A stretch of 64,000 nucleotides of DNA. Origin: Candidatus Moraniibacteriota bacterium. GTDB lineage: Bacteria; Patescibacteriota; Minisyncoccia; Moranbacterales; UBA2206. Every line of letters starts with the position of its first letter. The stretch's first letter is position 1. Below the pieces are notes generated by a model, which saw only the letters and a program-made list of their open reading frames with translations, searched no databases and was not told the DNA's origin. The position numbers and the translations under genes are program-made. This document shows positions 10,937-63,960 of the stretch, one piece after another. The stretch spans positions 13,665 through 77,664 of the forward strand of contig JBAQNM010000007.1 of NCBI GenBank assembly GCA_049303795.1. Direction: 5' to 3'.

Positions 10937-10949
10937 TTCTTTGTTTTTT

Positions 10950-12047: not shown

Positions 12048-12079
12048 AGTATAAATAATATTAGTTAATTTCGAGTGCT

Positions 12080-47260: not shown

Positions 47261-48046
47261 ATGTTAAACGAAAACCAAAGAGCTAAAATAAAATCTGCTC
47301 TTTTACAATTAAATATGACAGAAAAAGAGATTGCTGTTTATATTTCAGTCCTGCAATTAGGGGAGTCTAGTATTCCAACTCTGTCCAAGGAAACCGGTTT
47401 TAGCCGGGGGACTGTCTACGATTTGGTAGAAAAGCTAAAAAACGGAGGATTTTTAGCGGAGATTAAAAAAGGCAAAAAAAGACGTTTCGTGCCGGAAAGT
47501 CCAACTAATAAATTATATAAAATTTTGGACGGAAAGCATGATCAACTTAAGAAAATGCAACACGAAGTCGATGAAGTTTTGCCAATTTTGCGTTCGATTA
47601 ATGCCAAAGAGGATTTCAAACCGCAAATACGAACCTATTTTGGAGAAAAAGGCTTTCGCCAAGTTTGGGATGAAATTTTTTCCTATGAAGGTAAAAATTT
47701 TTTGAGCATCGCGCGGATAGAAACATTCATTGCTTTTGCCGGAGAAGAATTTTTAGATGAAATTCTTTCTAGAAAAAAGAAGCTTGGATTTGTTAGTCGC
47801 GCAATCAACGAAGATTCACTTTTGGCTCAGAATATGCAAAACAAAGATACACAAGAAAACCGAGAGACACGACTCGTGCCAAAAGATTTTACATTCCCCT
47901 CAACAGAGATAATTTTCGGCGATAAAATTGCAATGTTCTCAACTGACAAAGAAAATATAATTCTTCTTGTTGAAAGCAAGGATTTCGCCGAAACTCATAG
48001 GGCATATTTTGAAATGATGTGGAAGTTTTTGGAAAAGTCCGTTTAA
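47261..48046 (+). CDS. TrmB-like HTH transcriptional regulator, paralog 2 of 4
   Basis: wHTH MTEKEIAVYISVLQLGESSIPTLSKETGFSRGTVYDLVEKLKNGGF plus a C-terminal domain of about 170 aa. Confidence 0.6.
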   Translation: MLNENQRAKIKSALLQLNMTEKEIAVYISVLQLGESSIPTLSKETGFSRGTVYDLVEKLKNGGFLAEIKKGKKRRFVPESPTNKLYKILDGKHDQLKKMQHEVDEVLPILRSINAKEDFKPQIRTYFGEKGFRQVWDEIFSYEGKNFLSIARIETFIAFAGEEFLDEILSRKKKLGFVSRAINEDSLLAQNMQNKDTQENRETRLVPKDFTFPSTEIIFGDKIAMFSTDKENIILLVESKDFAETHRAYFEMMWKFLEKSV

Positions 48047-48110
48047 TAGATTGTAGAGTTGCAAATCTGGGGAGCTATAAAAAAATTAAAAACACAAATA
48101 GGAGACTAAA

Positions 48111-48431
48111 ATGAGAAGATATAAAATAGCAGAAAGACCAGATAGGCTTTTGTTATCAAGTGCTCTCTTGCTAGATACTTTTGAAAAAAGAATTACTGCT
48201 ATCGTGAGAGTGGAATATGGTTGGTTTGATATCACAGTGTCTTTAATCAGGAGAAGTAATAAAAAATTAATTATTGAAGGATATCTGGTAGGTGGGTATG
48301 TCTATGGTAGTTATGATATAGACAGGGAAAAAGAATCCACCTACATCATAACAATTGAACCTTATCCCTGGGATGAATCTTCCGGCGAGCTTAAAGAGAA
48401 AAACAAATCTTATATCGAAATCGAAGACTAA
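48111..48431 (+). CDS. Hypothetical small protein
   Basis: 106-aa ORF inside the island. No motif. Confidence 0.35.
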   Translation: MRRYKIAERPDRLLLSSALLLDTFEKRITAIVRVEYGWFDITVSLIRRSNKKLIIEGYLVGGYVYGSYDIDREKESTYIITIEPYPWDESSGELKEKNKSYIEIED

Positions 48432-48452
48432 ATTAATAAAAAGGAGATAGAA

Positions 48453-48875
48453 ATGAAAAAACTAATTAAAGTCTTGATTATTGATGAAGATCAGCGTCAA
48501 CTCGATAATTTATCTTTATTTCCTGGTTTGGAAATAAAAATAAATAGTTCTATGGAATATGGAATTAAAGAAAATTTTTCGAAATTTGATTTCATATTGA
48601 TAGGGCTGTCAAATAATTCTCTTAGTGGGTTAACGCTACTAAGAAGATTAAAAAAATTTAATTGGAGGTTTGCGCAAAAAAGACGAACTAAAAAGATAGT
48701 AATTATGAGTGAATTCGAAAAAATTGATTTCAACCTTGAGGAGTTTTATTGTCTGGTGGAAAGTTCGCTTTTTTGTTGGATGGAAAACTTTAAGTTTAAA
48801 GAAAACTACTATTTTTCTAAAGGCGACTTGAGAAAACCCTATAATGGAGTCTTGAGCTCCTTGCTTAAGTTATAA
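48453..48875 (+). CDS. Hypothetical protein, weakly receiver-domain-like
   Basis: 140 aa. KVLIIDEDQ...FDFILIGL resembles the start of a CheY-like receiver, but the motifs are incomplete. Confidence 0.3.
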   Translation: MKKLIKVLIIDEDQRQLDNLSLFPGLEIKINSSMEYGIKENFSKFDFILIGLSNNSLSGLTLLRRLKKFNWRFAQKRRTKKIVIMSEFEKIDFNLEEFYCLVESSLFCWMENFKFKENYYFSKGDLRKPYNGVLSSLLKL

Positions 48876-48885
48876 AGGAGAAAAA

Positions 48886-49101
48886 ATGAGCCAGAAAAAG
48901 ACAGAAGATTATCTTGAACTTTTAGAATTTCTTCTTCTGAAAATGGCTCATATTTCTATTGAGCCCGAAGAAGGAAGCCTCAGTCAAATTGTTGAAAGAT
49001 GTAAGAAATGTTCAGAGAAACTTAATCAAATCATTAATGCTCTTGAAGCATTAAATGGTTTTTCTTTTTTGCTTAACAAAAATATGGAGGTAGAAAAATG
49101 A
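48886..49101 (+). CDS. Small ORF (71 aa) translationally coupled (ATGA overlap) to the radical SAM gene. It is a candidate precursor or partner peptide.
   Basis: AT-rich ORF ending in ..NKNMEVEK. Its stop overlaps the ATG of ORF 49098. Confidence 0.3.
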   Translation: MSQKKTEDYLELLEFLLLKMAHISIEPEEGSLSQIVERCKKCSEKLNQIINALEALNGFSFLLNKNMEVEK

Positions 49102-50486
49102 AGGTATTAATTCTTGATCCGAGCTGGCCAGGAAAAAACGCAGTGTCTAGCGAAAAGATTGTCACTGCCTCAACGGGCGGTGCTCCCCAGCAAAATGAGG
49201 GCGCGATGTGCGTGGCTCAGGCAGCCCGCATGGCTGGTCATGAGGTGGAATATTTTCAGGCGCCGTATCACGGGTCGCCTGAAGATGTGCTGGCTAAAAT
49301 CGAAAACATTGCTGTGCTGGCATTATCACTGATGCAGTGGAACACACCTGTGGGGTTGCGATTTGCCCAAAAGGCGAAAGAGATCAATCCTATGGTAAAA
49401 GTGGCGGTGGGCGGCGTTTCACCTACATGCGTGCCCGAGCATTACTACAAAAATCCTTCAATCGATGCGGTGTTTGTCAGAGAGGGAGAAGAAATTTTTG
49501 TCAAATGGTTGAATGCGGGCATGCCCAGTGGAATTTTCAAAGCTAGTCGCGTAATCGACTGGGCAAAATATCAAGCGCCAGTTGATCAAACCATCCTCAA
49601 AAATCTGTATTTCCGAGGCCTGGCACCGGCTGGCAATGCGTGGGGATTCTATTTTACTCGAGGTTGTGCCGGTCGGTGTAAATTCTGTTGCACCCCGCAT
49701 GTTTTTCCAGGCGGAGAAATTGCAGATGATGTTTTAGGTGCTATTCGTCGGTTAATTCATCTTCGCGAACAGGGAGTTATGGGTGTGGACATCGCCAATG
49801 CCACTTTCAATGATAACCCTACTCTTGTAAGATATTTCTGCGAAAGCCTCATTTCGTCTGGGCTGAAGATGCCATGGACAGCTATGTGTGGCACGCACGG
49901 TGTCGACTTTGATATTTATTCATTAATGGCCAAGGCTGGCTGTTTCAAAGTTGGCTTCGGCATTGAAAATGCGACCCAACAAGGTCGCAAAAAGCTCGGT
50001 AAAAGAGGTTTTGCATCAGATAAATGTCATGACAGTGTTTATGCAGCACATGACGCCGGGTTACTTATCAGAGGATTTTTAATGATAGGTTCACTGGAGG
50101 ATGACGAGCAAACAATTGATTCTGTCAAAGAGTTATTAACAATGTTACCCATTGATGATCCGCGATTGGCGTTTATCACACCATTCGCCGGAACTACGTT
50201 CCACAAGCAGATGGTATATAGTGGACAAATCATCGACGATGATTGGAGTCATTATACTACCAATCGACCCGTCATTGGCACCGAAGATCGAGTCATGGAA
50301 CTTATAACTATGCAGCGGGAGATTATTCACTGGTTTTGGGCAGAGGGGCCTGGGCGATCGCAGATGATCAAACGTCTTTATAATGACCCTACAGCTTGGG
50401 TTTCGCGTTATCATCGATTTCTCACCAGAGACATAATTCCAAATGGATTTTTACGACCGGAAGAAGTTCCAAGTGAAATTTTGTAA
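49098..50486 (+). CDS. B12-binding-domain radical SAM enzyme
   Basis: N-terminal Rossmann-like cobalamin-binding-type region (KVLILDPSWPG...VAVGGVSPT). It is followed by the rSAM cluster motif GCAGRCKFCC (Cx3Cx2C) and a TIM-barrel-like core. The GC content is visibly higher than the surrounding genes. Confidence 0.8.
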   Translation: MKVLILDPSWPGKNAVSSEKIVTASTGGAPQQNEGAMCVAQAARMAGHEVEYFQAPYHGSPEDVLAKIENIAVLALSLMQWNTPVGLRFAQKAKEINPMVKVAVGGVSPTCVPEHYYKNPSIDAVFVREGEEIFVKWLNAGMPSGIFKASRVIDWAKYQAPVDQTILKNLYFRGLAPAGNAWGFYFTRGCAGRCKFCCTPHVFPGGEIADDVLGAIRRLIHLREQGVMGVDIANATFNDNPTLVRYFCESLISSGLKMPWTAMCGTHGVDFDIYSLMAKAGCFKVGFGIENATQQGRKKLGKRGFASDKCHDSVYAAHDAGLLIRGFLMIGSLEDDEQTIDSVKELLTMLPIDDPRLAFITPFAGTTFHKQMVYSGQIIDDDWSHYTTNRPVIGTEDRVMELITMQREIIHWFWAEGPGRSQMIKRLYNDPTAWVSRYHRFLTRDIIPNGFLRPEEVPSEIL

Positions 50487-50538
50487 GATTATTTTGAGAA
50501 AAATATAGTAGGCTATATATTTTAAAAGGAGACACGTC

Positions 50539-51480
50539 ATGAATGAAATTATCAGGCTTCATATTTTTCCTAGAGTAAGTTGGACATGGGACGAGTTTGT
50601 TGCAAAAACTCCTAAAAATTCAATTGCTTTGGACGGCATGGTCAAAGGAGGACCACGTTTTGACGAAGAAACAAGGCATATAAATTTTGACCATCACGAT
50701 GGAGTTATTCGTGAAGCCACTATGAGTACTGCTATGCAAGTTTTCATGGCAATAAAAGGCGGCTTAATGCAATCCTTTCGAGAAAACGGGCATCCTTCTG
50801 CTAATGTTTATATCAATGATACCGATCAAGATACAACATTAGCTGTTTGGCTATTAGGCAAATATCATCTTTTTGAAGGAACGCAAAGCTATCCATTAAT
50901 AAGCCGTTTGCTTTTTTTGGAAGACAAATGGGATATTACTGGAGGCGCCTTTCCAATTAGCCTAAGCGATAACCTTGTTTGCCAGCATGCCTGGATTTTC
51001 TATCCATATACATGCTTAAGAAAATCTGGGAAGTTAGCCAGTGCGGATGAAAATGTTCTCCGAGATAATATCGAAGCAAGCATAAAAAGGCTTGATGATT
51101 ATTTTATTGGAAAGGCAGGAGAAGAAGAAATAGATATACGGCACGAAATACTTTATGATTCTGCTAATTTTAAAATCATAAAAGAAATCGGCGGCGATGC
51201 CAGGCAATTTCTTTTTGGAAAAGGGCTGAATGCTTTTATAAGTCTTGTAACTGTTAGAGAAGATGGCCGATTCGTATGGAGCATTGGCAGGCGTTCAAAA
51301 TTCATACCTTTTCCTGTTCCACAACTATATATTGATTTTAATGAAGCGGAAGGTCTAACTGCTTTAAATGGCTGGGGCGGATCAGATATAGTGGGTGGTT
51401 CATCTCGGGAATTCGGCAGTAAGCTGATGTGGGAAAAACTTGCAGAAATTACCGAGAAGAGATTGAAAATAATTATGTAA
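50539..51480 (+). CDS. Hypothetical protein of intermediate GC content
   Basis: 313-aa ORF with no recognised motif. Last gene of the gyrA-flanked island. Confidence 0.45.
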   Translation: MNEIIRLHIFPRVSWTWDEFVAKTPKNSIALDGMVKGGPRFDEETRHINFDHHDGVIREATMSTAMQVFMAIKGGLMQSFRENGHPSANVYINDTDQDTTLAVWLLGKYHLFEGTQSYPLISRLLFLEDKWDITGGAFPISLSDNLVCQHAWIFYPYTCLRKSGKLASADENVLRDNIEASIKRLDDYFIGKAGEEEIDIRHEILYDSANFKIIKEIGGDARQFLFGKGLNAFISLVTVREDGRFVWSIGRRSKFIPFPVPQLYIDFNEAEGLTALNGWGGSDIVGGSSREFGSKLMWEKLAEITEKRLKIIM

Positions 51481-51520
51481 CAACACAACAAAACAAATCC
51501 TGCACTTTGAAAAAATAAAA

Positions 51521-51552
51521 AACCCGACGTTTATTATAGCGCCGGGTTTTAT
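51521..51552. terminator. Bidirectional rho-independent terminator between the island and gyrA
   Basis: Stem aacccgacg / cgccgggtt with an A-run before and a T-run after. Confidence 0.5.
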
Positions 51553-51567
51553 ATTTATTTAAGATTT

Positions 51568-54012
51568 TTATAAAACCGCAGTAGCAGCCACTTTATCTCC
51601 GGCTTGTGGCTTCATTACACGAACACCTTGAGTAGCGCGACCGAGAGAAGATATACTTTTCAAAGGAATGCGAATAATTTGACCTTTTTCAGAAGTAAGA
51701 ATCAGGTCAGCTTCCAGATTATCGATATTGATAATATTAGCACCAACTAATTTACCGGTTTTTGTAGTGATGGAAGCGGTTTTTATTCCGGAACCACCTC
51801 GCTTTTGGATTTTGTAATATTTAATATCAGATCTTTTTCCATAACCATTCTCAGTAATAACTAATAGTTGATTGCCTTTTTGTCCCTTAAAAAGGACATC
51901 CATTCCAACAACCAGGTCGTCTTTTTTTAGTTTTATACCGCGAACACCAGTAGCAGCGCGTCCCATTGAGCGAACATCGCTTTCCTTGAAGTGGATTGCT
52001 TGACCTTGTGAGGTCGATACAACTACTTCGTCTGTTCCAGTTGTTGCGCTAACCCAGCGGAGAGCATCACCCTTATCAAGTTTAATTGCAATAAGTCCGG
52101 AGCGTCTGACATTTTCAAATTCTTCCAGAGTAGTTTTTTTGACAGTTCCCATTTCAGTTGCCATGAAAAGATATTTATAACTATCATCTTTATTGAAGGC
52201 AATAATAGCAGTGACTTTTTCTTCTTGTGAAAGTTGTAGGAAGTTTACAATTGATTGTCCTTTGGAAATACGGGATGATTCAGGCAATTCGAAAGCTTTA
52301 GTTTGGAAAACTTTTCCGTTGTTAGTAAAGAATAAGAGATTATCATGGGTCATAACGCCGAGTAGTTTTTCAATTTCATCACCTTCTTTAGTTGATGCTC
52401 CAATTACACCTTTTCCTCCACGCTTCTGAACTTTATAAACAGTTGGGTTCATTCTTTTAATATAACCTTCTTTGGAAATAGTGATGATGGCTTCTTCGTC
52501 AGGAATCAAATCTTCTTGACGAAATTCTGTTAGGCCTGATTTAATGATTTTTGTGCGACGTTCATCACCAAACTTTTCTTTAACACGATTTAATTCGTCC
52601 TTGACGATAGCTAGAATTTTCTTTACGCTTTTTAGGATAGCTTCAAGTTCAGCGATTAATTTTAATTTTTCCGCTAGTTCGTCTTCAATTTTCTTTTGTT
52701 CGAGTCCGGCAAGGGTTTGCAATTTCATTTCCAAAATAGCGGTTGTTTGACGATCCGAGAGTTTGAATTTTTTCATCAAATTAACATGCGCTTCTTCTTT
52801 TGTTTTGGATTTTTTGATGGTTTCAATTACGGCGTCAATATAATCCAGCGCTTTTTTTAGACCTTCTAGGATATGAGCGCGATCCTGAGCTTTTTCAAGA
52901 TCAAAACGTGTTTTACGAGTGATCACTTCTTTTCTGTGAGCGATATAATATTCAAAAATTGCTTTTAAATTAAGCACGGTTGGCTCAATTCCATCAACCA
53001 ATGCTAGCATATTAACACCAAAATTCTTTTGAAGATCAGTTAATTCATATAGTTTATTGAGGACTTTTTGTGGATAAGCGTCTTTTTTAAGATCGATTAC
53101 AAGGCGAACTCCATCTTTATCAGATTCATCACGAATATCACGAATACCAACAATTTTTCCTTCTTTCACAAGGTCAGCCATTCTTTCAATCATGGTAGAT
53201 TTGTTGGTGGCATAGGTCATTTCAGTGACAATAATTTGAAAAGCGCCAGCTTTATTTTCATGAATGTCGGCTTTGGCGCGAGTTAGGATTTTTCCACGAC
53301 CAGTTTTATAGGCTTCAACAATATCTTTTTTATTATAAATAATTCCTCCAGTAGGAAAGTCTGGACCTTTTACGAATTCACATAGATCGTCAACTGTAGC
53401 ATCAGGATTGTCAATAAGATGACTAATACCTTCAATTAATTCAAATAAATTGTGTGGAGGAATATTAGTCGCCATACCAACGGCGATTCCCATTGATCCG
53501 TTGAGAAGTAGCTGAGGAAGATTAGATGGGAGAACAGTTGGTTCTTTATGCTGTCCATCAAAGTTGGGTACAAAATCGACAGTATTTTTTTCAATATCAG
53601 TGAGCATTTCTTCAGCAATACTAGAAAGTTTTGCTTCAGTATAACGATAAGCAGCTGCGCTGTCTCCGTCCATCGATCCAAAGTTTCCTTGACCTTTAAC
53701 TAGGGGATAGCGTAAGGAAAAGTCTTGAGCCATACGTACCATAGAGTCATAAACAGCTACATCTCCGTGGGGGTGATATTTTCCCAAAACCTCTCCAACT
53801 ACTGTGGCAGATTTTCGAAATTTGGCATTAGCACGCAGTCCTGTGTTCCACATCGAATAAAGAATACGGCGATGAACTGGTTTCATGCCATCACGCACAT
53901 CAGGAAGAGCACGCGCAACAATCACGCTCATGGCATAATCCAAATAGGATTGTTGAATTTCTTCAGTTATTTCACGGGGCTGAATATTTTCCAGCTCAAT
54001 TTTCATTTCCAT
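51568..54012 (-). CDS. gyrA: DNA gyrase subunit A
   Basis: The QRDR-region block [26 protein letters not shown], the active-site Tyr region AAAYRYTE, and C-terminal beta-pinwheel repeats. 814 aa. Confidence 0.95.
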
Positions 54013-54114
54013 TTTGATATTGTTCTAGATTAAAAGAATTATTATAACTATACAAAAAAGCTTAATAAAAGCCTTATTTTTTATTATTAAATAAATAAGA
54101 TTTTTAAAATCAAT

Positions 54115-54504
54115 TTATTTAGGAGGTAATATTTCGTTTGGAGTCTGACTTTCTTGAGGTCTTATTTCTGATGAACTTTGATCATTTTGAGGGGATATTT
54201 CATTTGAAAAACTCTCTTCCAATTGGTTACTTTCTGGTGGAATAGTGTTGTTTAGGTTATCAATAGCATCTTTGGTATTTTTTGTTACATCTTCTAGTGA
54301 TTTTTTTTGAGCTTGAAAATCACGCATTATTTGTTCATTTTTTAATTTAGTAGCGGGATCTTCATAAATATTGGCGGAAAAAAAAGAAAAAAACCAAAGT
54401 AATAAAATGAAAAACATTGAAATTGCAATAAGTCCGTAAATATAACGAATACGTATATGTTCGGGTTTTTTTCTAATTTCTTCTATTTTTCTTTCAATAT
54501 TCAT
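54115..54504 (-). CDS. Hypothetical small membrane-anchored protein
   Basis: 129 aa with one TM helix and a Gln/Ser-rich C-terminal tail. Confidence 0.4.
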   Translation of the reverse strand: MNIERKIEEIRKKPEHIRIRYIYGLIAISMFFILLLWFFSFFSANIYEDPATKLKNEQIMRDFQAQKKSLEDVTKNTKDAIDNLNNTIPPESNQLEESFSNEISPQNDQSSSEIRPQESQTPNEILPPK

Positions 54505-54509
54505 TATTT

Positions 54510-55169
54510 TTATTCTATACCCATCACAATTACCTCCATATTTTTACTTTCAAAATCCTTACTTTTTAGATTTAATTTTGATGGTCTTTCTGTTGAACAA
54601 TTTCCCATTTCTAAACAAAAACTCTTTTCATCAGCGACATCGATAGTGGAATTTTTTATTTTAAAATGAATCGGAATTATTATATTTGGTTCAATTTTTT
54701 TAATATTTTCGATTGCCTTTTTATAATCCAGTGTATATTTCCCACCAATCGGTATCATTAAAACATTAACTCCACCAATTTTTTCTAGTTGCTTTTCATT
54801 TAAATCACAACCTAAATCACCAAGATGACAAATTTTTATATCCTCACTGTCAATTAGATAAATGGTATTATCGCCTTTTTCCTTGCCATTATTAGCATCA
54901 TGATAAGAGGGTATTCCAATAATATTGATTCCTCTAACTGAATATTCTCCTGGCAGGTCGATGATACGAGGCTCACCTTTGAGTGCTTCTACATTATTAT
55001 GATCAGAATGATTATGAGTTACTAAGACAACATCAGCTTGCCCTTGTGGTGGTCGAAGACCGATTGATTTGTCAAAGGGATCGATAAATAAATTTACTTC
55101 TTCCTGACCTCTGCCTGCTGGTTTGATAGATATTTTAAAGCAAGAATGGCCATAATATTGAATATTCAT
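54510..55169 (-). CDS. MBL-fold metallo-hydrolase
   Basis: VLVTHNHSDHNN (HxHxDH) and downstream His/Asp ligands. 219 aa. Confidence 0.78.
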   Translation of the reverse strand: MNIQYYGHSCFKISIKPAGRGQEEVNLFIDPFDKSIGLRPPQGQADVVLVTHNHSDHNNVEALKGEPRIIDLPGEYSVRGINIIGIPSYHDANNGKEKGDNTIYLIDSEDIKICHLGDLGCDLNEKQLEKIGGVNVLMIPIGGKYTLDYKKAIENIKKIEPNIIIPIHFKIKNSTIDVADEKSFCLEMGNCSTERPSKLNLKSKDFESKNMEVIVMGIE

Positions 55170-55326
55170 AGTGTTTGTTGTTTTTTAATTAAAAATCTAA
55201 ACAGATTTAGGGCTGTTACTAAGAGTATAATAACACATTAAAAAAGGGCTGTCGAGATTTTAGCAAAAAGCGTGTAGTCTTTTAAATTTTTTGGAAGTGT
55301 GTTAGATTTTAGTAGATCTTAATATT

Positions 55327-55398
55327 GTCCCTATAGTTCAACGGATAGAACAAGAGACTCCTAAGCTCTAGATCCAAGTTCAATTCTTGGTGGGGACA
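55327..55398 (+). tRNA. tRNA-Arg (anticodon CCT, read by eye). The 3' CCA is not encoded.
   Basis: Cloverleaf: acceptor GTCCCTA / TGGGGAC with discriminator A, D-arm GTTC-AACGGATA-GAAC, anticodon loop CTCCTAA, and T-arm CCAAG-TTCAATT-CTTGG. There is one non-Watson-Crick pair at 31:39. Confidence 0.65.
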
Positions 55399-55406
55399 CA
55401 AATAAA

Positions 55407-56909
55407 ATGCTTTCTAAAATCCCAAAATATATAATAGGCACAATTCAAAGTCTTAATGAGGCTGGCTTTGAAGCGTTTGTGGTGGGTGGTTGCGTGCGAG
55501 ATTTGATGATGAAAAATCCCGAGTACTCGGGACCAAAGGACTGGGACATTGCAACAAATGCGAAACCGGAAGATCTTTTGAAAATCTTTCCGGACGGGAA
55601 ATATGAAAATAATTTTGGAACAGTGATGTTGCCATTAAAATATACCAATGGCGTTTCTGAGGAAGATTGGAATGGGCCGAATGTGGAAATCACAACATAT
55701 CGCATTGAATCTAAATATTCTGATAAGCGTCATCCGGATGAGGTGAAATTTGCGAAAACTTTGAAAGAGGATTTGAGTCGAAGAGATTTTACGGTGAATG
55801 CGATGGCGATAAAAATCAATAAACAGGAGTCAGAAAATAAATTTGAAATAATTGATCTTTTTGGTGGACAAGAAGATTTAAAGAATAAAAAAATTAGAGC
55901 GGTGGGGGAAGCGGAGGAAAGATTTGATGAGGATGCACTTCGCATGATGCGAGCAATTCGTTTCTCAGTGCAACTTGGTTTTGAGATTGAAGAAAAAACT
56001 TTTCTGGCAATTAAGAAAAATTCCAAAAACTTAAAATTTATTTCGGGGGAAAGAATTCGCGATGAGTTTAATAAGATTATACTTTCAAATAATCCGAGCA
56101 AAGGAGCGGAGCTTTTAGTAGAAAGCAAATTAATGGATGAATTTATTCCCGAGATAATTGCGACTATCGGTGTGAAACAAAATCGTCATCATTATTTTGG
56201 GCCATATAATACCGTCTATGCTCATTTATTGGCAAGTCTGGAAAAATGTCCATCTGAAAAATTGGAAGTGCGTTTGGCATCATTTCTGCATGACCTGGGA
56301 AAACCAAAATCAAAAAGAGGAGAAGGGGAGATGTCAACTTTCTATAGTCATGAATATATCGGCGCAAAAATGGTGGAGAACATTTTGGAGCGAATGAAAT
56401 ACCCACGAAAAGTTATTGATAAAACTGTGATGCTCGTCAAGAATCACATGTTCTATTATAACGTCGATGAAGTGGGCGAATCAGGAGTGCGTCGCGTGGT
56501 GCAAAAAGTGGGAGTGGAAAATATTAACGATTTAATTGACGTGCGAGTTGCTGATCGACTTGGATCTGGCGTTGCCAAAGCGGTGCCATATAAACTTCGC
56601 CATTTCAAATTCATGGTGGAAAAAGTATCAAGCGATGCTATTTCAGTCAAACAGCTAAGAATTAATGGCAATGATTTAATAGCCGAACTCAAAATCCAAC
56701 CCGGACCAAAAATCGGGGCGATTTTGGATGTGCTTCTGGCAGAGGTGATTGACGACCAAACTCTAAACGAAAAAGAAAAACTTTTGAAACTAGCCAAAGA
56801 CTTAGACAAAAAAGATCTCGCCGAACTCCGTGCGTTTGCTAAGCAAAAAATTGAGAAAGAAAAAAAGGAAGAGGAGGAATTGATGAAGAAGAAATATTGG
56901 GTGGAATAG
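55407..56909 (+). CDS. cca: CCA-adding tRNA nucleotidyltransferase (class II, with HD domain)
   Basis: FVVGGCVRDLMM...DWDIAT NTase head, then RDFTVNAMA, followed by the HD phosphohydrolase region (HHYF...FLHDLGK). Confidence 0.88.
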   Translation: MLSKIPKYIIGTIQSLNEAGFEAFVVGGCVRDLMMKNPEYSGPKDWDIATNAKPEDLLKIFPDGKYENNFGTVMLPLKYTNGVSEEDWNGPNVEITTYRIESKYSDKRHPDEVKFAKTLKEDLSRRDFTVNAMAIKINKQESENKFEIIDLFGGQEDLKNKKIRAVGEAEERFDEDALRMMRAIRFSVQLGFEIEEKTFLAIKKNSKNLKFISGERIRDEFNKIILSNNPSKGAELLVESKLMDEFIPEIIATIGVKQNRHHYFGPYNTVYAHLLASLEKCPSEKLEVRLASFLHDLGKPKSKRGEGEMSTFYSHEYIGAKMVENILERMKYPRKVIDKTVMLVKNHMFYYNVDEVGESGVRRVVQKVGVENINDLIDVRVADRLGSGVAKAVPYKLRHFKFMVEKVSSDAISVKQLRINGNDLIAELKIQPGPKIGAILDVLLAEVIDDQTLNEKEKLLKLAKDLDKKDLAELRAFAKQKIEKEKKEEEELMKKKYWVE

Positions 56910-56930
56910 GAACCTAAAAAACAAAAAAAA

Positions 56931-56963
56931 GAGGCGACCCGTGGTTGTGCGGGTCGCCTTTTG
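56931..56963. terminator. Strong bidirectional rho-independent terminator after cca
   Basis: GC-rich stem gaggcgacccg / cgggtcgcc with an 8-nt loop, an A-run before and a T-run after. Confidence 0.65.
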
Positions 56964-56977
56964 TAGATTATTTTAGA

Positions 56978-57766
56978 TTATTTGCGTGCAATTAACACTG
57001 CGTAGGGAAAATAAAAAGTTATTCCCCTGTTGCTTTTTTCAATTTTCCATTTTTCTTTAACTTTTCCTGGAAGTCGTTGATAGAAATTATTAATTTCTGC
57101 GCTTCCCTCGGCATTAATTTCGGTTGTTGCGGAATAAGTAATCCAACCATCATAATCAAAAGGATTTTGAATATCCTTAAAGCCAGATTCTTCAAGTAAG
57201 TTCAAGTGGTCATTTTTAGTTGGAAAATGCCGTTTCATTTTTCCCGCATTTCCAGCAAGCCTATCTTTCAAATTTACAAGTTCATCGAAATATTTAGTCG
57301 TATCTTTTTCAGAGCAAGCAGCAATTAAAACGAACAAGCCATCATTTTTTAGCAATCGATAAACTTCTTTGATAGCGTCTGGCTGGGCTTTTTTTGGTAG
57401 ATCATGTAGCGCTCCACGCAAGAAAATTCTGTCAAAAGTATTTTCAGGCAGGCCAGTTTTTCTAATATCAGATAAAATTTTTGAGCCAGGCGTCTTGATT
57501 TGATTTAACATGGCTTGAGAAAAATCCGTGAATGATATTTTTGATATTTTCCCAAGTGTTTTTAACTCCTTATTAAGAGTTTCGCCGATTTTGCCTGTGC
57601 CACACATTGCATCTAATATCTCAGATTTTGGTGGCAATGATTTAAGGTTTGAGTATTTTAGAATTTTTGGTATTAAATCATCACGACGCAAACCAGCATA
57701 CTCCTTACAATTCCAACGATGAGAAATTTTATCATATCTCCTAAGTAGACCCTCGTTTGTTTTCAT
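56978..57766 (-). CDS. Class I SAM-dependent methyltransferase
   Basis: The SAM-binding motif I is ILDAMCGTGKIG, with acidic motif II and motif III following. Confidence 0.7.
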   Translation of the reverse strand: MKTNEGLLRRYDKISHRWNCKEYAGLRRDDLIPKILKYSNLKSLPPKSEILDAMCGTGKIGETLNKELKTLGKISKISFTDFSQAMLNQIKTPGSKILSDIRKTGLPENTFDRIFLRGALHDLPKKAQPDAIKEVYRLLKNDGLFVLIAACSEKDTTKYFDELVNLKDRLAGNAGKMKRHFPTKNDHLNLLEESGFKDIQNPFDYDGWITYSATTEINAEGSAEINNFYQRLPGKVKEKWKIEKSNRGITFYFPYAVLIARK

Positions 57767-57952
57767 AGCTAGTCATCCTTTTTTAAATTTTTAAGAAGCA
57801 CTCATTTTGATCATAACTAATAAGTATAAATGTTTTTTTAATAACGTCAATAAATAAGGATAATAATTTTATTTATTAATAAGGATTGACTTAATTTAAG
57901 CCATATAGTATGCTATTTTTGACGACCAAAATTATCGACATAATATAAAACA

Positions 57953-58696
57953 ATGGAAATATTAGAGGAAAAATTAAAGCTTTTAGGGTTAAATGAAAAA
58001 GAAGCCATAATATATCGGGCGATATTACAAGGGAAAAAAGCAACAATCATAGATCTTGCCAAAGCGACAGGGACAAAGAGAACGACAGTTTATCATTGTT
58101 TAGATGCTTTAGTGGAAAAAAGTTTGGTGAATAGGGTCATGAAAGATGGGCATAAATATTATTATGCTGAAGATCCAGAGGAGAGTTTAAAATTAATACT
58201 CAAGGAAAAAGAGGATGTGATTAAGAAATTAATTCCTGATTTGAAATCTATATTCGGCACAAATCTTTATCAGCCGGAAATTGAGATATATAGAAATATA
58301 AATGGAATCCGAAAAATCTTAGAAGACATACTTAGTGTTAAAGAGTCAGTAGTTAGATATTACTTATCTGAATATAATGTGGAAGACATGGCTGGAGCGG
58401 ATTTTGTAGATGAATTTGTAAAAAAAAGAATTGCCTCAGGAGTGAAAAGCTTGGCGCTTCGATCATTTAAGTATAAGCCTGAAAGGGAGAAGATTTCAAC
58501 GCATGCTAAGCAGCTTCGAGAGGTGCGCTTCGTTCCGGAAAATATAATTATCAAACCATATATTTGTATTTATGATGATAAGGTGACAATGATTTCCACA
58601 AAAGAAGAAAAGCTGGGCTTTATAATTAAGTCGCATGAATTTGCCGAAGCACAAAAAGCGATTTTTGATATGATTTGGAATGGGGTGGCTATATAA
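57953..58696 (+). CDS. TrmB-like HTH transcriptional regulator, paralog 3 of 4
   Basis: wHTH LNEKEAIIYRAILQGKKATIIDLAKATGTKRTTVYHCLDALVEKSLV plus a C-terminal domain. Confidence 0.6.
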   Translation: MEILEEKLKLLGLNEKEAIIYRAILQGKKATIIDLAKATGTKRTTVYHCLDALVEKSLVNRVMKDGHKYYYAEDPEESLKLILKEKEDVIKKLIPDLKSIFGTNLYQPEIEIYRNINGIRKILEDILSVKESVVRYYLSEYNVEDMAGADFVDEFVKKRIASGVKSLALRSFKYKPEREKISTHAKQLREVRFVPENIIIKPYICIYDDKVTMISTKEEKLGFIIKSHEFAEAQKAIFDMIWNGVAI

Positions 58697-58719
58697 TAAA
58701 ATTAAGTACATTTTTATTA

Positions 58720-58778
58720 TTGCTAAGCAAAAAATTGAGAAAGAGGAGTTGATGAAGAAAAAGTATTAGGTGGAGTAG
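58720..58778 (+). repeat. Decayed duplicate of the cca 3' end (copy 2 of 3)
   Basis: ttgctaagcaaaaaattgagaaagaggagttgatgaagaaaaagtattaggtggagtag aligns to the last ~60 nt of cca, with a premature in-frame stop. Confidence 0.7.
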
Positions 58779-58789
58779 CCTAGAAATAC

Positions 58790-58818
58790 TTGACAAATAT
58801 CAAAATTTGTTATAATAT
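58790..58818 (+). promoter_or_regulatory. Sigma70-like promoter candidate upstream of the DUF4143 ATPase gene
   Basis: TTGACA at 58790-58795, then TATAAT after a 15-nt spacer (or TAATAT after a 17-nt spacer), about 35 nt upstream of the start codon. Confidence 0.45.
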
Positions 58819-58851
58819 TGAGAATATAATACTATAATTTATACTAATTTT

Positions 58852-59985
58852 ATGAATTACATCCCAAGATTAATAGAAAAACAAATAAAAGAGCGCTTAT
58901 TTAAGGGTAAACTGGTTATTTTGTATGGAGCCAGGCAAGTTGGGAAAACCACATTAGCCAAAAAAATATTGGCAGATTATGGCGAAGATGGCACATATTT
59001 TAATTGCGAGCTGTTGTCTGTTCAAAAAGGTCTAGCTGAGCCGGAAGCGGAAAAACTGAAAAAATTTCTGGGAAATTATAAAATTATTCTGTTGGATGAG
59101 GCACAAAACATTCCTAATATTGGAAAAATTTTGAAAATTATTGTTGACACCTATCCTGAAATACAAATTATTGCCACGGGCTCGTCTAGCTTTGACTTGG
59201 CGCAAAAAATTTCCGAACCAATGACGGGTAGGACTTTTACTTTTATGCTTTATCCTATTTCACTTCAAGAAATTAATCAAAAAGAAGACTTACTTTCCAT
59301 AGAAGCTAAGTTGGAAAATTTTTTAAGATTTGGAAATTATCCGGAAATTCTTTTTTTGGGAGAAGCTGAATCCATTGAGAGGCTGCAGGAGATTTCTTCT
59401 AAATATTTATATAAAGACATTTTGAGTTTTGAGGGCTTGAAAAAATCAAGTCTCGTCAAAAATTTGTTAGAGCTGCTAGCTCTCCAACTAGGCAATGAAG
59501 TTTCTTATAATGAATTGGCGGTTAATTTAGGAGTTGATCGACTCACGGTGCAAAAATATATTGATATATTAGAGCAGGCTTTTGTGATTTTCAAACTGAA
59601 TGCTTTTTCGCGAAATTTGCGCAAAGAAATTTCTAAATCAATCAAAGTATATTTTTATGATCTGGGGATTAGAAATAGTCTGATTGAAAATTATAACCCG
59701 CTAGACATCCGAAATGATGTCGGGGCGCTTTGGGAAAACTTTTGTATTCTAGAAAGAAAAAAGAATAATGATGCGGAGTTTAATTTTGTCAACTCATATT
59801 TTTGGCGGACTTATGATCAAAAAGAAATTGATTATATTGAAGAAAGCGGAGGGAAAATTCGCGGATTTGAATTCAAATGGAATGAAAAAAAGAAATTTAA
59901 GGTTCCAAAAGAGTTTATTGAGAAATATGGTGCTACGGTGGAAAAAATTGATAGGAGCAACTATTGGAAGTTTTTGAATCTATAA
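58852..59985 (+). CDS. AAA-family ATPase with C-terminal DUF4143 domain (AAA_14/DUF4143 architecture)
   Basis: Walker A LYGARQVGKTTLAK and Walker B ILLDEAQ, then the long C-terminal domain typical of the DUF4143 family. Confidence 0.78.
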   Translation: MNYIPRLIEKQIKERLFKGKLVILYGARQVGKTTLAKKILADYGEDGTYFNCELLSVQKGLAEPEAEKLKKFLGNYKIILLDEAQNIPNIGKILKIIVDTYPEIQIIATGSSSFDLAQKISEPMTGRTFTFMLYPISLQEINQKEDLLSIEAKLENFLRFGNYPEILFLGEAESIERLQEISSKYLYKDILSFEGLKKSSLVKNLLELLALQLGNEVSYNELAVNLGVDRLTVQKYIDILEQAFVIFKLNAFSRNLRKEISKSIKVYFYDLGIRNSLIENYNPLDIRNDVGALWENFCILERKKNNDAEFNFVNSYFWRTYDQKEIDYIEESGGKIRGFEFKWNEKKKFKVPKEFIEKYGATVEKIDRSNYWKFLNL

Positions 59986-60079
59986 AAGATCTCGCCGAAC
60001 TTTGCGCTTTTTCTAAGCAAAAAATTGAGGAATAAAAGAGAAGGAAGAGTTGATGAAGAAAAAGTATTGGGTGGAATAA
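59984..60079 (+). repeat. Decayed duplicate of the cca 3' end (copy 3 of 3), followed by a terminator-like hairpin
   Basis: aaaagatctcgccgaactttgcgctttttctaagcaaaaaattgagg...gatgaagaaaaagtattgggtggaataa aligns to the last ~100 nt of cca. It is followed by the hairpin aaaaggcagtgatcagg/gatcgactgcctttt. Confidence 0.75.
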
Positions 60080-60156
60080 AATATTTTTTGGACAAATAAA
60101 AAAGGCAGTGATCAGGTTTGATCGACTGCCTTTTACGATTTAGAGGCATAATGGTT

Positions 60157-60561
60157 TTAAGGAGCAGGGAAATGTGGGCTGTATAATGGTCCCACGAAAG
60201 AACCGTTTGCTTTAAGAATATAATCGACAGCATCGTCTTCATTTATAAATCTTTCACAAAACCATACATGAGCAGTATTGGGTATTCTTGGGTCAGTGTT
60301 TTCGGCGCAGATTTGGCAGGCTGCTACGTTCACCCCATTCTCCTTAAAACCAACAACAAGAGGTGTTGTGCCAATAAGAAATTTTGATAAACTTTCCCCT
60401 CTAAATTTAATATAAATCTCTTCTCCCAAATTCTTTGGATCTAAAACCCAGTCAGGACAATAAAGCATAGAATTATCTTCTGTTTTATCCCTAATCTCTT
60501 GTTTGGGATTCTTAGTTTTAGAAAAACACAATTTTTCTAAAAGATTACGTACGTTTTCCAT
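60157..60561 (-). CDS. Hypothetical protein
   Basis: 134-aa Cys-containing ORF (CPDW..CQIC..WFCE). It shares a near-identical 5' leader with the next gene. Confidence 0.4.
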   Translation of the reverse strand: MENVRNLLEKLCFSKTKNPKQEIRDKTEDNSMLYCPDWVLDPKNLGEEIYIKFRGESLSKFLIGTTPLVVGFKENGVNVAACQICAENTDPRIPNTAHVWFCERFINEDDAVDYILKANGSFVGPLYSPHFPAP

Positions 60562-60630
60562 TTTTCTACTCCTTTACTTAATTTTCACTAGGCTCGTTAT
60601 TTATTCTCGCGAGCCTTTTGCGAGGCTTGA

Positions 60631-61137
60631 TTATTTATCGGCAAGATAAATGTAGTGGCCTAATCTTTTTAGGTCATCATCATGATTTACATCTACGAAG
60701 CCACTTTTCATTAAATCTGATTGTAGCTTGGCAAGAAGTTTGAATTCTTCTTTGGAGGGATGAGAAATGATTTCCTCAATTTCCTTGGGTTTCATTATGG
60801 TTCCTGCCCAAAAAAATCCTTGGTCATGTCTTGTCTTAAACTGACCGCCACAAATATTTTTCTCCCCAAAAATTTTCCCACTTTCAAGTAAAGCTAATAC
60901 CTGCCTTGCGCAACGAAGTTTGTAGATATTATATAAAGCCCCATCTTTTTCAATTCCAGCATTTCCGAGGGCTTCTCTTACCCTATACCAATCGCCTTCC
61001 TCCAGCCTCCATTCAGCAACGAATAAATATGCGGAAGAGTCCATACCCTCTTCATCGACCATTTTTAGCAGAGCAATAATTCCTTCCACTGTTTTTTTCC
61101 AATCCATGGTTTCTACCAGTTTTTTAATTTTTTCCAT
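60631..61137 (-). CDS. Hypothetical protein
   Basis: 168-aa ORF. It is preceded by a palindromic leader and is divergent from the TrmB-like paralog 4. Confidence 0.4.
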   Translation of the reverse strand: MEKIKKLVETMDWKKTVEGIIALLKMVDEEGMDSSAYLFVAEWRLEEGDWYRVREALGNAGIEKDGALYNIYKLRCARQVLALLESGKIFGEKNICGGQFKTRHDQGFFWAGTIMKPKEIEEIISHPSKEEFKLLAKLQSDLMKSGFVDVNHDDDLKRLGHYIYLADK

Positions 61138-61218
61138 TTTTCTCTCCTTTGCCTAATTTTCATTAGGCTAAAATTTTTTCGCCAGTGTAGCTCTCGATCA
61201 ATTCGCCTAATTGCGAAC
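61138..61218 (-). promoter_or_regulatory. Operator-like palindromes in the leader/divergent control region
   Basis: gcctaatTTTCattaggc (61151-61168) and ttcgcctaattgcgaa (61203-61218). The first, together with the RBS, is duplicated upstream of ORF 60157..60561 at 60562-60597. Confidence 0.4.
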
Positions 61219-61464
61219 CCGTGCCTTTGTGATTTATTTAGTTTTTAATGAACCTGCTAAGTTTCCAATTGGACTATCCAAATTTTCAGCTTAACAAAAT
61301 AGTATACATCAAAAATAGTAAAATGTCAAAACTTATGGTCAAAAAAATATATAGCATTTTTATCTAAAGATAATAATGCTTTAAAAATAGGCTATATTGA
61401 CAAATTAAGCTAGTTTGATATAATGTAAATGTTGACGATAATGGTGGTCATATAATAAAATATC

Positions 61465-62247
61465 ATGGAAATTAAGGAAGTTTTGGAAAAATTTGGGCTA
61501 AAGGGGAGAAAAGCGGATGTTTATCTGGCGACTTTGGAATTGGGAAGTGCCAGCGTGATTGAAATAGCTAAAAAAGCCCAGATTAAAAGAACTACTTGCT
61601 ATAATGTGCTGTTGGATCTTATCGACGAAGGCTTGATTTCGCAGATAACCAAAGGGAAAAGAAAATTATTTATTGGTGAAGACCCAAAAAAAATAATGGA
61701 GGAAATAAAGAATAAAGAGAGACTATTTTCTGAAATTTTGCCTCAACTCCAGTCCATTCACAATATCAAGACGGGTAAGCCAAAAATGCGCTATTTTGAA
61801 GGAAAAGAAGGGATAAGAGAAGTGCGCGAAGACACATTAATGCATGGTGGAAAAGAAATATTAGCCATATATTCATATGATATTATAGATATTCTCGGCA
61901 AAGAATTTACGGATAATTATATTAAAAAAAGAATCCAAAAAGGATTTCATGTTAGAACAATTGCTCCGGATGATGATGAGATGATAAAAAATTACACAAC
62001 CAAGGATCAAGAACAATTGAGGAGCACAAAACTTATCAGTGCCAAGGATTTTCCTTTTTCAATCGAAATCCTTATTTATGGCAATAATTATGTGGCGCTA
62101 ATTTCCGCCAAGGAAGAAATAGGACTGATTATAGAAGGCTCAGAAATTCACAAAACCATGAAACTTATTTTCGAGCTGATTTGGAAGTTGTTACCGGAAA
62201 TAAAAGTGAAAGAAAGATATTTGTCAGTGAGCAAGGAGGAAAAATAG
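61465..62247 (+). CDS. TrmB-like HTH transcriptional regulator, paralog 4 of 4
   Basis: wHTH KGRKADVYLATLELGSASVIEIAKKAQIKRTTCYNVLLDLIDEGLI plus a C-terminal domain. Confidence 0.6.
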   Translation: MEIKEVLEKFGLKGRKADVYLATLELGSASVIEIAKKAQIKRTTCYNVLLDLIDEGLISQITKGKRKLFIGEDPKKIMEEIKNKERLFSEILPQLQSIHNIKTGKPKMRYFEGKEGIREVREDTLMHGGKEILAIYSYDIIDILGKEFTDNYIKKRIQKGFHVRTIAPDDDEMIKNYTTKDQEQLRSTKLISAKDFPFSIEILIYGNNYVALISAKEEIGLIIEGSEIHKTMKLIFELIWKLLPEIKVKERYLSVSKEEK

Positions 62248-62334
62248 TTCAAAATATTTGATTGGTCAGATATTTTCAAAAAATGCTATAATTATAATAA
62301 GTAAACGGTTTAAAAAATTAAATAGCATAAATAT

Positions 62335-63960
62335 ATGGAAAAGTTTAATCCTGTAAATAAAGCAATAGAAGAGGCGTATAGAAAAATTCATACCAATCCT
62401 GATTTTTATGCAAAGAATGAAGGAAGCTTTGAGGAGAAGCCGGACCTCACTCCCTTGGATACTTTTGCTATACCGGCTGAAATACTTGAAAGTAAAGAAA
62501 CGTTCCTAGAGTGGTTTGAACCAAGATTTTTCAAATTTAGCGATGAAAAAGGTGGCATCGACAAGAATGCTTTGGCGGAATTTTCCAAAGATTTGCAGGA
62601 GGCGGTTGATTTTTTGAAAAGCAATCCCTATATTCTTTCTCCACGTGTCGATAAGGGATTTGCACTTTCAAAAAAGCCTGGAGATAAAGTTGAAGCTGGA
62701 TTTGATAATTTAGAGGAGGTAATGGCATTTTTCAAGAAAGTTGCCGTTGCAAATACTTCTGAAAATACTAAAGATTATTTCTCTCCAGATAGAAAGTCTC
62801 TTACCGGAGGGGAAAAAATAACGCATTGTCGGATTTTAAGTGTGGCCTATGTGATTGAGCGGATAAAGAAAAGCCATGCTTTTCGAGATTTTCTCGAACA
62901 TTCGCGATTTGTTTTAGGACGAGATAAGGAAAAAGGACCAGAATCGGGAATTCTTTCTAATCTTGTTATTCCGAAAGAACTGGATATTTTGTTAGATAGG
63001 GAATCAGAGGCACTGAAAATTTTCGAGTGGGTAGAAAGAAACCAAAAGGTTGCCGGGTGTAATTTTAATAATATTGGCGAAGAAGAAAGAAAGCATTCAT
63101 ATCATATTCCAGAAGTGCAAATTGGAATCAAAGAGGGTTTACGAACTTTTTTGAAATATTTAAGAAGTCCAAAAGAAGCTTTCAAAATTGCAGATGATTT
63201 TTTGCGTTTCCGTTTTATTTTTAACGATAATATGGAAACGGAAAAAATGCTTGAGCTGATGCATGATATTCAAGCGGAAGCGAAAAGGAAAAAAGATCCA
63301 AGAGTAGAGATTGAATTCCGGGAAAAGAATTATCTTTCCGAAGAGGATCTAGAAGCATATTTTCCGGAAAAAAGTAAAAAGGGGAATAAGCGAAAGGGAA
63401 TCTTAGATAATATTAAAATTGACAAGAATCCGGCTTCAGGGAAAGGATATAAGAATATGTCAGCCAAGGTGAAGCTGTATAATCCTGGCGGAAGGAGATA
63501 TTATTTTGCTTTTGAAATTGTGTTTGTTCGAAAAAGTGAACATAGAGAAAATGAAAGACTGGAAAGGCCAGCTAATCATTTTTTGATGGAGATGAGACAA
63601 TCAACTGAGTTGACTTCTCGTATGACAGGAAAAATGAAAAAAGAAGAGATGATTCTAGCTTTGAAAAATTATTTAGAAATAAACATAAAAACAGAGGAAA
63701 TTCCCAGTGTGCTTATTGGTGATGCCAAAGATTCTGAACGTTATGGATCCTCAGTTATGGAAGTTGATTTTGCAGGTTCGATTGACAAAAAGGCGCAGAT
63801 TCTTTTTGACTTTTTGTTGAATGAAGGAACGATAAAAAAAGTATCGGCTGATTTTCCTTCTCAAAAAAAACCTACTCAGAAAAAAAGAGATCAATCAGTT
63901 TGGTATATTTGGGGGGCTAATAGGGACAGAATCCTGGATGCTTCTGGTGCAGAAAAATAA
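62335..63960 (+). CDS. Hypothetical 541-aa soluble protein downstream of TrmB-like paralog 4
   Basis: Long ORF with charged, mixed composition and no motif recognised by eye. Confidence 0.45.
   Translation: MEKFNPVNKAIEEAYRKIHTNPDFYAKNEGSFEEKPDLTPLDTFAIPAEILESKETFLEWFEPRFFKFSDEKGGIDKNALAEFSKDLQEAVDFLKSNPYILSPRVDKGFALSKKPGDKVEAGFDNLEEVMAFFKKVAVANTSENTKDYFSPDRKSLTGGEKITHCRILSVAYVIERIKKSHAFRDFLEHSRFVLGRDKEKGPESGILSNLVIPKELDILLDRESEALKIFEWVERNQKVAGCNFNNIGEEERKHSYHIPEVQIGIKEGLRTFLKYLRSPKEAFKIADDFLRFRFIFNDNMETEKMLELMHDIQAEAKRKKDPRVEIEFREKNYLSEEDLEAYFPEKSKKGNKRKGILDNIKIDKNPASGKGYKNMSAKVKLYNPGGRRYYFAFEIVFVRKSEHRENERLERPANHFLMEMRQSTELTSRMTGKMKKEEMILALKNYLEINIKTEEIPSVLIGDAKDSERYGSSVMEVDFAGSIDKKAQILFDFLLNEGTIKKVSADFPSQKKPTQKKRDQSVWYIWGANRDRILDASGAEK

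Follow-up and report, generated by a model that had tools for sequence, protein, structure and literature searches.

Displaced 3′ ends of cca bracket small accessory modules in a Moranbacteria genome and its relatives

Introduction

Several bacterial toxin loci grow by displacement. In the rhs, cdiA and type VI secretion system (T6SS) effector arrays (Jackson 2009; Poole 2011; Kirchberger 2017, PMC5361080), a conserved coding region lies upstream and acts as an anchor. With each incoming module a new 3′ end arrives, and the previous 3′ fragment is shifted downstream along with its companion genes. An ordered series of orphan ends results, and no integrase is involved. Homology-facilitated illegitimate recombination was proposed for the orphan arrays of T6SS/rhs loci (Kirchberger 2017, PMC5361080). 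Here we analyse a 64,000-nucleotide stretch of contig JBAQNM010000007.1, called the window below. In it, the 3′ end of cca, the gene of the CCA-adding tRNA nucleotidyltransferase, is found three times, bracketing small accessory modules. On balance, the cca locus is probably a recombination hot spot to which accessory genes were added by serial 3′-end displacement.

The locus shares with the toxin arrays the conserved anchor, the new 3′ end and the ordered orphan ends. It differs in that the anchor is a housekeeping gene (cca, and in parallel cases gyrA or rpoC), the end is not a variable toxin domain and the new end is nearly synonymous with the old one. The cargo of the toxin arrays consists of effector-immunity pairs, whereas here regulators, a defence candidate, toxin-antitoxin pairs and methyltransferases are found. 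Displacement-type accretion itself is known. What is new is its setting, the housekeeping genes of a lineage of the candidate phyla radiation (CPR), and a common pool of small modules that carry their own promoters.

Homology-facilitated illegitimate recombination was described experimentally in naturally transformable bacteria (de Vries & Wackernagel 2002; Prudhomme 2002). The process combines a homologous anchor on one side with a microhomology joint on the other. The same combination is proposed here, and a 9-nt joint is seen directly in one relative (locus L170). In those experiments, recipient DNA next to the anchor was usually deleted, whereas here the joint lies inside the homologous region of the anchor, leaving a duplicated gene end. 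Transformation would be the presumed route of uptake in the present case.

Islands inserted by integrases at the 3′ ends of genes or tRNAs, such as tycheposons, also have features in common with the locus. After insertion the 3′ end of the target is whole again, each unit has partial copies of the target beside it and older units are pushed outward by newer ones. The cis-mobilisable elements of streptococci likewise show integrase-type tandem accretion at gene 3′ ends. In contrast to integrase-mediated islands, the present locus has no integrase or integrase fragment and no constant att core, the repeats vary in length and the same modules occur at unrelated targets. Integron cassettes resemble the modules as compact units of one or two open reading frames (ORFs), stacked at one site and nearly filled by the ORF. 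They differ by their attC hairpin, intI and attI, none of which is found here, and the present modules carry their own promoters. Transposons and insertion sequences (IS) have terminal inverted repeats, a transposase and a short target duplication of fixed length, whereas at the modules no such repeats and no transposase were found, and the duplications are of variable length (30-160 nt).

Transfer hot spots and defence islands flanked by core genes hold accessory, defence-like genes between highly conserved genes that offer homology for recombination. What distinguishes the present locus from these is that fossil gene ends can still be read in it and show in which order the events took place. 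CPR/Patescibacteria have tiny genomes with few recognisable mobile elements, and their gain of accessory and defence genes is poorly understood. Each fossil end marks one acquisition, in order, at conserved termini where DNA from other species can be anchored by homology. Should the pattern be general, horizontal transfer in uncultivated lineages, and the direction of that transfer, could be mapped by scanning for displaced 3′ ends, with no need of integrases as markers. The displacement model, known from toxin loci, would then extend to ordinary housekeeping genes.

Results and discussion

The end of cca is present three times in the window

The genome belongs to the Moranbacteria (CPR/Patescibacteria), and the cca protein of the window is 86% identical to orthologues from Moranbacteria metagenome-assembled genomes (MAGs). 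Look-up of the exact protein returned no record. The gene is preceded by tRNA-Arg(CCT). The features that define the repeated gene end are as follows.

55407 to 56909, plus strand: cca, CCA-adding tRNA nucleotidyltransferase of 500 aa, the conserved anchor (Pfam PolyA_pol, PolyA_pol_RNAbd, HD, tRNA_NucTran2_2)
56810 to 56909, plus strand: copy 1, the functional cca 3′ end, reading KDLAELRAFAKQKIEKEKKEEEELMKKKYWVE up to the stop codon (repeat search, alignments, profile)
56929 to 56962: bidirectional terminator hairpin common to cca and the convergent methyltransferase gene (RNAfold, -25.9 kcal/mol; terminator scan)
58719 to 58778, plus strand: copy 2, a remnant of a cca 3′ end, 60 nt long, in which TGG has become TAG and which has an internal gap of 15 nt (repeat search; profile E=3e-6)
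59984 to 60079, plus strand: copy 3, a remnant of a cca 3′ end, 96 nt long, which is interrupted by a TAA stop and lacks 4 nt through a deletion (repeat search; profile E=3.4e-20)
60089 to 60098, plus strand: TGGACAAATA, tentatively read from the aligned sequence as a probable remnant of a TTGACAAATA-type -35 region, as after copy 2
60100 to 60134: terminator hairpin AAAAAAGGCAGTGATCAGGTTTGATCGACTGCCTTTT after copy 3 (-19.6 kcal/mol), the same as the cca terminator in L082

An earlier note, made from the letters of the window, had described these three copies, premature stops in the two additional ones, and terminator hairpins after the first and third. It had also described the cargo, a divergent pair of a SAM (S-adenosylmethionine) methyltransferase and a TrmB regulator followed by a single DUF4143-type AAA ATPase with a near-consensus promoter of its own. 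All of this is borne out by repeat searches and alignments, translation in the cca frame, folding energies, Pfam assignments and the promoter sequence. Ten true cca ends of relatives were used to build the nhmmer profile, against which the two remnants score well beyond chance (72 bits for copy 3).

Copies 3 and 1 are equal at 81 of 96 aligned positions. Copy 3 is no nearer to copy 1 than to the cca ends of relatives, with which up to 85 of the 96 positions are equal, and its homology runs through the non-repetitive AAAGATCTCGCCGAAC. In the alignment, copy 2 is equal to copy 1 over its left 25 nt and to copy 3 over its right 22 nt. The longest run common to all three copies is 17 nt. Translated in the cca frame, copy 3 gives KDLAELCAFSKQKIEE followed by a stop, and copy 2 gives IAKQKIEKEELMKKKY, a stop, VE and a second stop. 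The reading frame of cca itself is intact after insertion, in the window (500 aa) as well as in the relatives L004, L010, L045 and L123 discussed below.

The hairpin after copy 3 is 97.6% identical to the cca terminator of L082. This match is consistent with copy 3 being the oldest resident cca end. As a separate observation, the hairpin is kept at 90-98% in four genomes (window 60100-60134; L082 11672-11711; L010 13643-13682; L045 12638-12684). It is much more conserved than the surrounding non-coding DNA, and the cca proteins of these genomes are just 71-83% identical.

The cca locus in related genomes

We compared 160 related cca loci; labels L001-L173 designate relatives' loci. The conserved downstream neighbour of cca is a gene of 219 aa with an HD-like product, and in some genomes an FBPase gene stands between the two. 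The distance from the cca stop to the HD-like neighbour ranges from 78 nt (L008) to 7.5 kb (L010), with different occupants. The arrangement in the window is therefore not ancestral. In four other lineages, different inserts of 1-2.5 kb directly follow the cca stop, and each is followed by a truncated cca end of the host's own type.

L004: two unknown ORFs, then a cca remnant of about 56 nt
L010: MerR-HATPase-like and DUF4325 genes, a remnant of about 30 nt, then a methyltransferase gene, a 117-aa ORF and a TrmB gene
L045: a homologous pair of HATPase-like and DUF4325 genes, followed by a remnant of 64 nt
L123: MNT and HEPN genes as a pair, a TrmB gene and, after them, a remnant of 160 nt

With those of the window included, remnant lengths are about 0-12, 30, 56, 60, 64, 96 and 160 nt, without a fixed left boundary or a constant core position.

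Two relatives provide empty sites. L005 is a clean empty site for L004, as the two loci are collinear but for a 1570-nt insert. The last 51 nt of L005 cca align both to the functional end of L004 and to its remnant. The L004 remnant runs on into the common CATGAAACA motif, the terminator and the FBPase gene, and remnant plus flank are 85.8% identical to the L005 cca end plus flank over 2878 nt. Because the L004 remnant is continuous with the flank kept in L005, the remnants are displaced original ends, and the functional ends arrived with the inserts or were created by them. L033 is the empty site for L010. In L010, the 3.45-kb insert starts precisely after the cca stop codon and stops where the ancestral flank begins.

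In L123 and L004, the two ends found at the locus are different alleles, one of them foreign. The 160-nt remnant of L123 has no indel and no stop, and differs from the functional end by 14 synonymous and 7 non-synonymous codon changes. Such mostly synonymous differences argue for divergence under selection, each end having been part of a functional gene in its own lineage, and not for decay of a fresh duplicate. The L004 remnant is nearer to the real end of L001 (48/58) than to its own functional end (44/58). It terminates with TGA followed by GGTCATGAA, as the L001 end does, whereas the functional end of L004 terminates with TAG. L010 and L033 are mosaic. Their cca bodies are 85-90% identical and the last 200 nt 97-100%, the step lying about 200 nt before the cca stop. 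As judged from these alignments, the mosaic shows that homologous exchange is frequent at the cca locus.

The module of HATPase and DUF4325 genes is also present in L005, where no flanking repeat was found. In L010, a candidate remnant where the HEPN gene ends (16365-16408) is marginal (E=0.42; alignment score 45 against a shuffle maximum of 33). For the species itself, the sole population sample consists of three contigs (including GCA_049296135.1), which are 100% identical to the window over the common region and have the same cca arrangement. Mobility in this genome is unproven, since the arrangement is invariant in the three contigs.

The same kinds of module follow gyrA and rpoC

A displaced gene end is also found at gyrA in the window.

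51568 to 54012, minus strand: gyrA, the second conserved anchor
47008 to 51567: gyrA island, a 4.6-kb accessory block between gyrA and the remnant
46893 to 47007, minus strand: decayed gyrA 3′ end (87% identity over 84 nt)

Besides a TrmB-family gene (47261-48046) and a B12-binding radical SAM gene (49098-50486), the gyrA island contains ORFs of 106, 140, 71 and 313 aa. In relatives, gyrA and a MazG-like gene, which is at 46112-46423 in the window, are convergent direct neighbours. No gyrA-end remnant was found in nine relatives. In L002, the TrmB gene of the gyrA island is kept at 93% protein identity, without a remnant. We also noted that the block from the MBL-hydrolase gene to gyrA (51568-55400) is inverted relative to cca in the closest relatives (L001, L005, L010 and others), where gyrA is on the plus strand upstream of cca. 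The divergent gyrA/cca arrangement of the window is common to more distant relatives.

Each of the close homologues of the window ATPase (79-95% protein identity) is encoded in a variable stretch that directly follows rpoC, in three loci.

L164 (ATPase 94%): rpoC, 62-aa ORF, Fic, 258-aa ORF, AAA, ftsK
L170: rpoC, AAA, PemK, further genes, MNT, HEPN, ftsK
L173: rpoC, 188-aa ORF and DUF4325, 126-aa ORF on the minus strand, AAA, further genes

The NCBI name of L164 protein P0003 indicates the same MAG as for L010, RIFOXYA12_FULL_35_19. DNA homology between the window and L164 is confined to 58789-59986 (87% over 1198 nt), and its limits coincide exactly with the -35 hexamer and the stop codon. 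After the AAA module of L170 comes a copy of the final 65 nt of rpoC (98.5% identical). The joint lies in the 9-nt AAGAAAACG. The sequence on its 5′ side is the one that flanks the 3′ end of the module in L164 and L173, and rpoC coding sequence with the same 9-mer follows. On this alignment, module and rpoC are joined at a microhomology in L170. The terminator sequence of rpoC, without a coding remnant, is repeated after the modules in L173 and partly in L164.

Module 5′ ends are also left behind, as deduced from a 78-nt 5′ remnant of the AAA module, made of the promoter and ATGAATTAT, in L164 (5832-5909) and L173 (4832-4909). This remnant, which is followed by a repeated hairpin, CCTAAAGCTTCGCTTTAGG, stands just upstream of the intact module.

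A scan of 1364 ORF ends revealed no convincing 3′-end remnants at genes other than cca and gyrA. Three candidates were rejected: a palindromic repeat in L141, tandem paralogues in L019 and an exact 3.1-kb duplication in L051. A further match, at L004 5008-5142, is in a region with IS and reverse-transcriptase genes.

Genes carried by the modules

The accessory genes downstream of cca in the window are listed below.

56978 to 57766, minus strand: island 1, class I SAM-dependent methyltransferase of 262 aa (Pfam Methyltransf_25/11)
57953 to 58696, plus strand: island 1, TrmB-family winged-helix regulator of 247 aa, divergent from the methyltransferase gene (Pfam TrmB)
58789 to 59985, plus strand: island 2, promoter-to-stop module with the AAA_14+DUF4143 ATPase ORF at 58852-59985 (Pfam; PADLOC; homology to L164)
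60157 to 60561, minus strand: 134-aa ORF, further variable cargo without a family match
60598 to 60627, minus strand: displaced 3′ end remnant of another gene, intact in L082 (128 aa, 11736-12122, minus strand), with a 24-nt exact match, TTATTCTCGCGAGCCTTTTGCGAG, at 60598-60621
60631 to 63960: rest of the variable region, with a 168-aa ORF (minus strand), a second TrmB-family gene at 61465-62247 (plus strand) and a 541-aa ORF (plus strand); the window ends before the conserved HD-like neighbour of cca

Homologues of the island 1 methyltransferase elsewhere (38-41% identity) are again divergently paired with a TrmB gene, beside ksgA, and the pair is a conserved two-gene unit. A 65% identical copy of the TrmB protein is encoded at the right end of the insert after cca in L010. 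The promoter of island 2 (TTGACA/TGnTATAAT, 58790-58816) has TTGACA at 58790-58795 and TATAAT at 58811-58816. It precedes the ATPase gene, whose product is a full-length match to the PADLOC candidate defence family PDC-S01 (E=3.4e-150).

Pfam searches of the window cargo and of 65 ORFs from variable regions of 12 genomes (about 8 islands) gave no match to an integrase, resolvase or transposase. TrmB-family genes account for 13 of the 65 ORFs. The others include MNT/HEPN pairs, methyltransferases, DUF4325, Fic, NYN, NUDIX and PRTase-CE genes. We considered whether the TrmB-family proteins are hidden recombinases. An alignment of 25 members shows winged-helix and structural conservation only, with no catalytic-looking set of His, Lys and Asp residues, and they are therefore treated as regulators. 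At the module ends, no significant terminal inverted repeats were found, the matches being AT-rich chance ones, and no known RNA family was found. GC content as a mark of foreign origin was uninformative (islands 0.33-0.36, cca 0.385, window 0.35).

Four TrmB-family paralogues are encoded in the 64-kb window (29643-30494, 47261-48046, 57953-58696 and 61465-62247). The family is strongly expanded and tied to variable gene blocks. The remnant at 60598-60627 has the 134-aa ORF on one side and the 168-aa ORF, with its stop codon, on the other, and seems to be another displaced gene end, on the opposite strand.

Possible mechanisms of accretion

In the reading that we prefer, serial 3′-end displacement, DNA from a related Moranbacterium would arrive, presumably by transformation, and would carry a cca end with the donor's downstream genes. 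On one side, homologous recombination would probably take place inside the conserved cca. On the other side, an illegitimate joint with a few bases of microhomology would form inside the resident cca tail or just after it. The incoming end would become the functional one. The resident end would be cut off and pushed downstream with its old flank, where it would decay. Two such events, in an order that we infer, would produce the layout of the window: cca with copy 1, the methyltransferase and TrmB genes, copy 2, the AAA defence candidate, copy 3 and the old terminator. The window would then hold three generations of the cca end. A module bracketed by two gene-end copies could further be passed to naive loci, or deleted, by RecA recombination. 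A recA gene is present in the lineage, as seen in L164.

The earlier note had proposed serial integration at one 3′-end target and, with the gyrA case, a family of modules that target the termini of housekeeping genes. The gyrA case proved to be real. The homology of the copies and the successive addition of inserts also stand, in view of the empty sites (L005, L033) and the separate remnants of L004, L010, L045 and L123, and modules of the same kinds do lie downstream of gyrA and rpoC. The idea of integrating elements that actively target gene termini is not supported by any recombinase, att core or population polymorphism. The modules have no recombinase, inverted repeats or fixed core, and the L170 joint uses 9 nt of microhomology.

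Several observations weigh against serial displacement. Five of the seven right-hand joints are 0-6 nt from the stop codon of the cargo, and the left edge of the AAA module is the -35 hexamer in three contexts. Such tidy module ends are not expected of random illegitimate joints, unless they were trimmed later or inherited from a founding event. At the joint of copy 3, at most about 3 nt of microhomology are possible. No recombination breakpoint is visible in the cca of the window, for which L001 is the nearest relative throughout the 3′ half, without a clear switch. Among the relatives, no donor was found in which cca is directly followed by these modules. Finally, the presence of cca remnants in five lineages, with nearly none elsewhere, hints at a site preference. 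Because of the tidy ends, the -35 left edge and the bias to cca, site-specific recombination acting in trans and RecA-driven cassettes both stay alive as explanations.

In the first of these, the modules would be cassettes without an integrase, comparable to cis-mobilisable elements, tycheposon remnants or integron cassettes. A recombinase encoded elsewhere would recognise the ends of cca, gyrA and rpoC, and the repeats would be attL, attR and hybrid att sites produced by tandem accretion. This would explain why cargo stops abut remnants, why one left edge recurs in three contexts and why remnants are found mainly at cca. The same HATPase+DUF4325 module after cca in L010 and in L045, the preservation of the very end of the gene in every remnant and the chimeric appearance of copy 2 also fit, and tandem pushing of older elements is documented for tycheposons. 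We nevertheless regard it as unlikely. The searched islands and ORFs encode no recombinase, remnants of about 0 to 160 nt have no common core position, and one pool of modules serves three unrelated targets. Moreover, the remnants are of host type and not of element type (KGKYYVK-type in L045, KKKYWVE-type in L010), and the L170 microhomology lies between a terminator and a coding sequence. It is likewise doubtful that compact promoter-to-stop cassettes (defence candidates, toxin-antitoxin pairs, regulator and enzyme pairs) circulate in CPR and are inserted in the last 0-160 nt of cca, gyrA or rpoC by a dedicated integrase-independent mechanism that duplicates the gene end each time. If RecA acted alone, circles or linear fragments carrying a gene-end copy would integrate by a Campbell-type or double crossover with overlapping arms, and illegitimate joining would have happened once, at the founding event. 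Direct repeats of 30-160 nt of host type and mosaic homologous recombination at the locus agree with this, as does the hybrid look of the L004 remnant, which differs from L001 at 6 positions of its left 36 nt but is equal to it over the 24 nt that follow. It would also account for tidy, inherited module ends. The copies are just 77-87% identical, however, and their exact runs of at most 25 nt are marginal for RecA. RecA could not move a module from cca to rpoC, and the L170 joint is a fresh illegitimate event. This makes RecA alone quite improbable.

Two further explanations receive much less credit. The insertion mechanism might itself produce a long target-site duplication, by staggered breaks and fill-in or by target-primed synthesis; the copies would start identical and the downstream one would decay. 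The 98.5% identity of the L170 copies and the variable duplication length, as in target-primed insertions, could be read in this sense. The indel-free, mostly synonymous divergence in L123, the TGA stop of an L004 remnant that matches L001 better than its own functional end, and the lack of reverse transcriptase or transposase genes in the islands make it very improbable. As for chance matches of low complexity or a fixed ancestral arrangement, the cca tail is rich in lysine and glutamate codons and in purines, and all three contigs of the species are arranged identically. Such an explanation has practically no weight beside the profile E-values of 3e-20 and 3e-6, the homology of copy 3 through AAAGATCTCGCCGAAC and the empty sites and different occupants in relatives, by which it is already refuted.

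Further observations

Six relatives (L034, L040, L042, L061, L062 and L130) have an insertion of about 600 nt inside cca, where the tblastn match is interrupted between residues of about 80 and about 92. It could correspond to an extra domain, an intein or an intron. The duplication in L051 is exact over 3104 nt (9618-12721 and 14689-17792), includes the whole of cca and has its copies 5 kb apart. It is surrounded by palindromic repeats of 65-95 nt, and may be a recent duplication or an assembly artefact. Near the cca island of L123, a repeat (2354-2662 and 5140-5331) has no clear ORF, only the spurious peptide GLNRITDDKRGRKPHKK on the minus strand. It may be an RNA gene or a small repeat.

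A 16-nt palindrome, TGTTCCACGTGGAACA, has ten exact copies at 44157-45553 of the window, none being expected by chance. All are inside an ORF of 595 aa resembling an O-antigen ligase (43778-45565), and they are read in three frames as MFHVEH, CSTWN or VPRGT. They resemble in-frame palindromic repeat elements. The motif is also present in L141, at the end of an ORF for a Xer-like recombinase and in nearby intergenic DNA.

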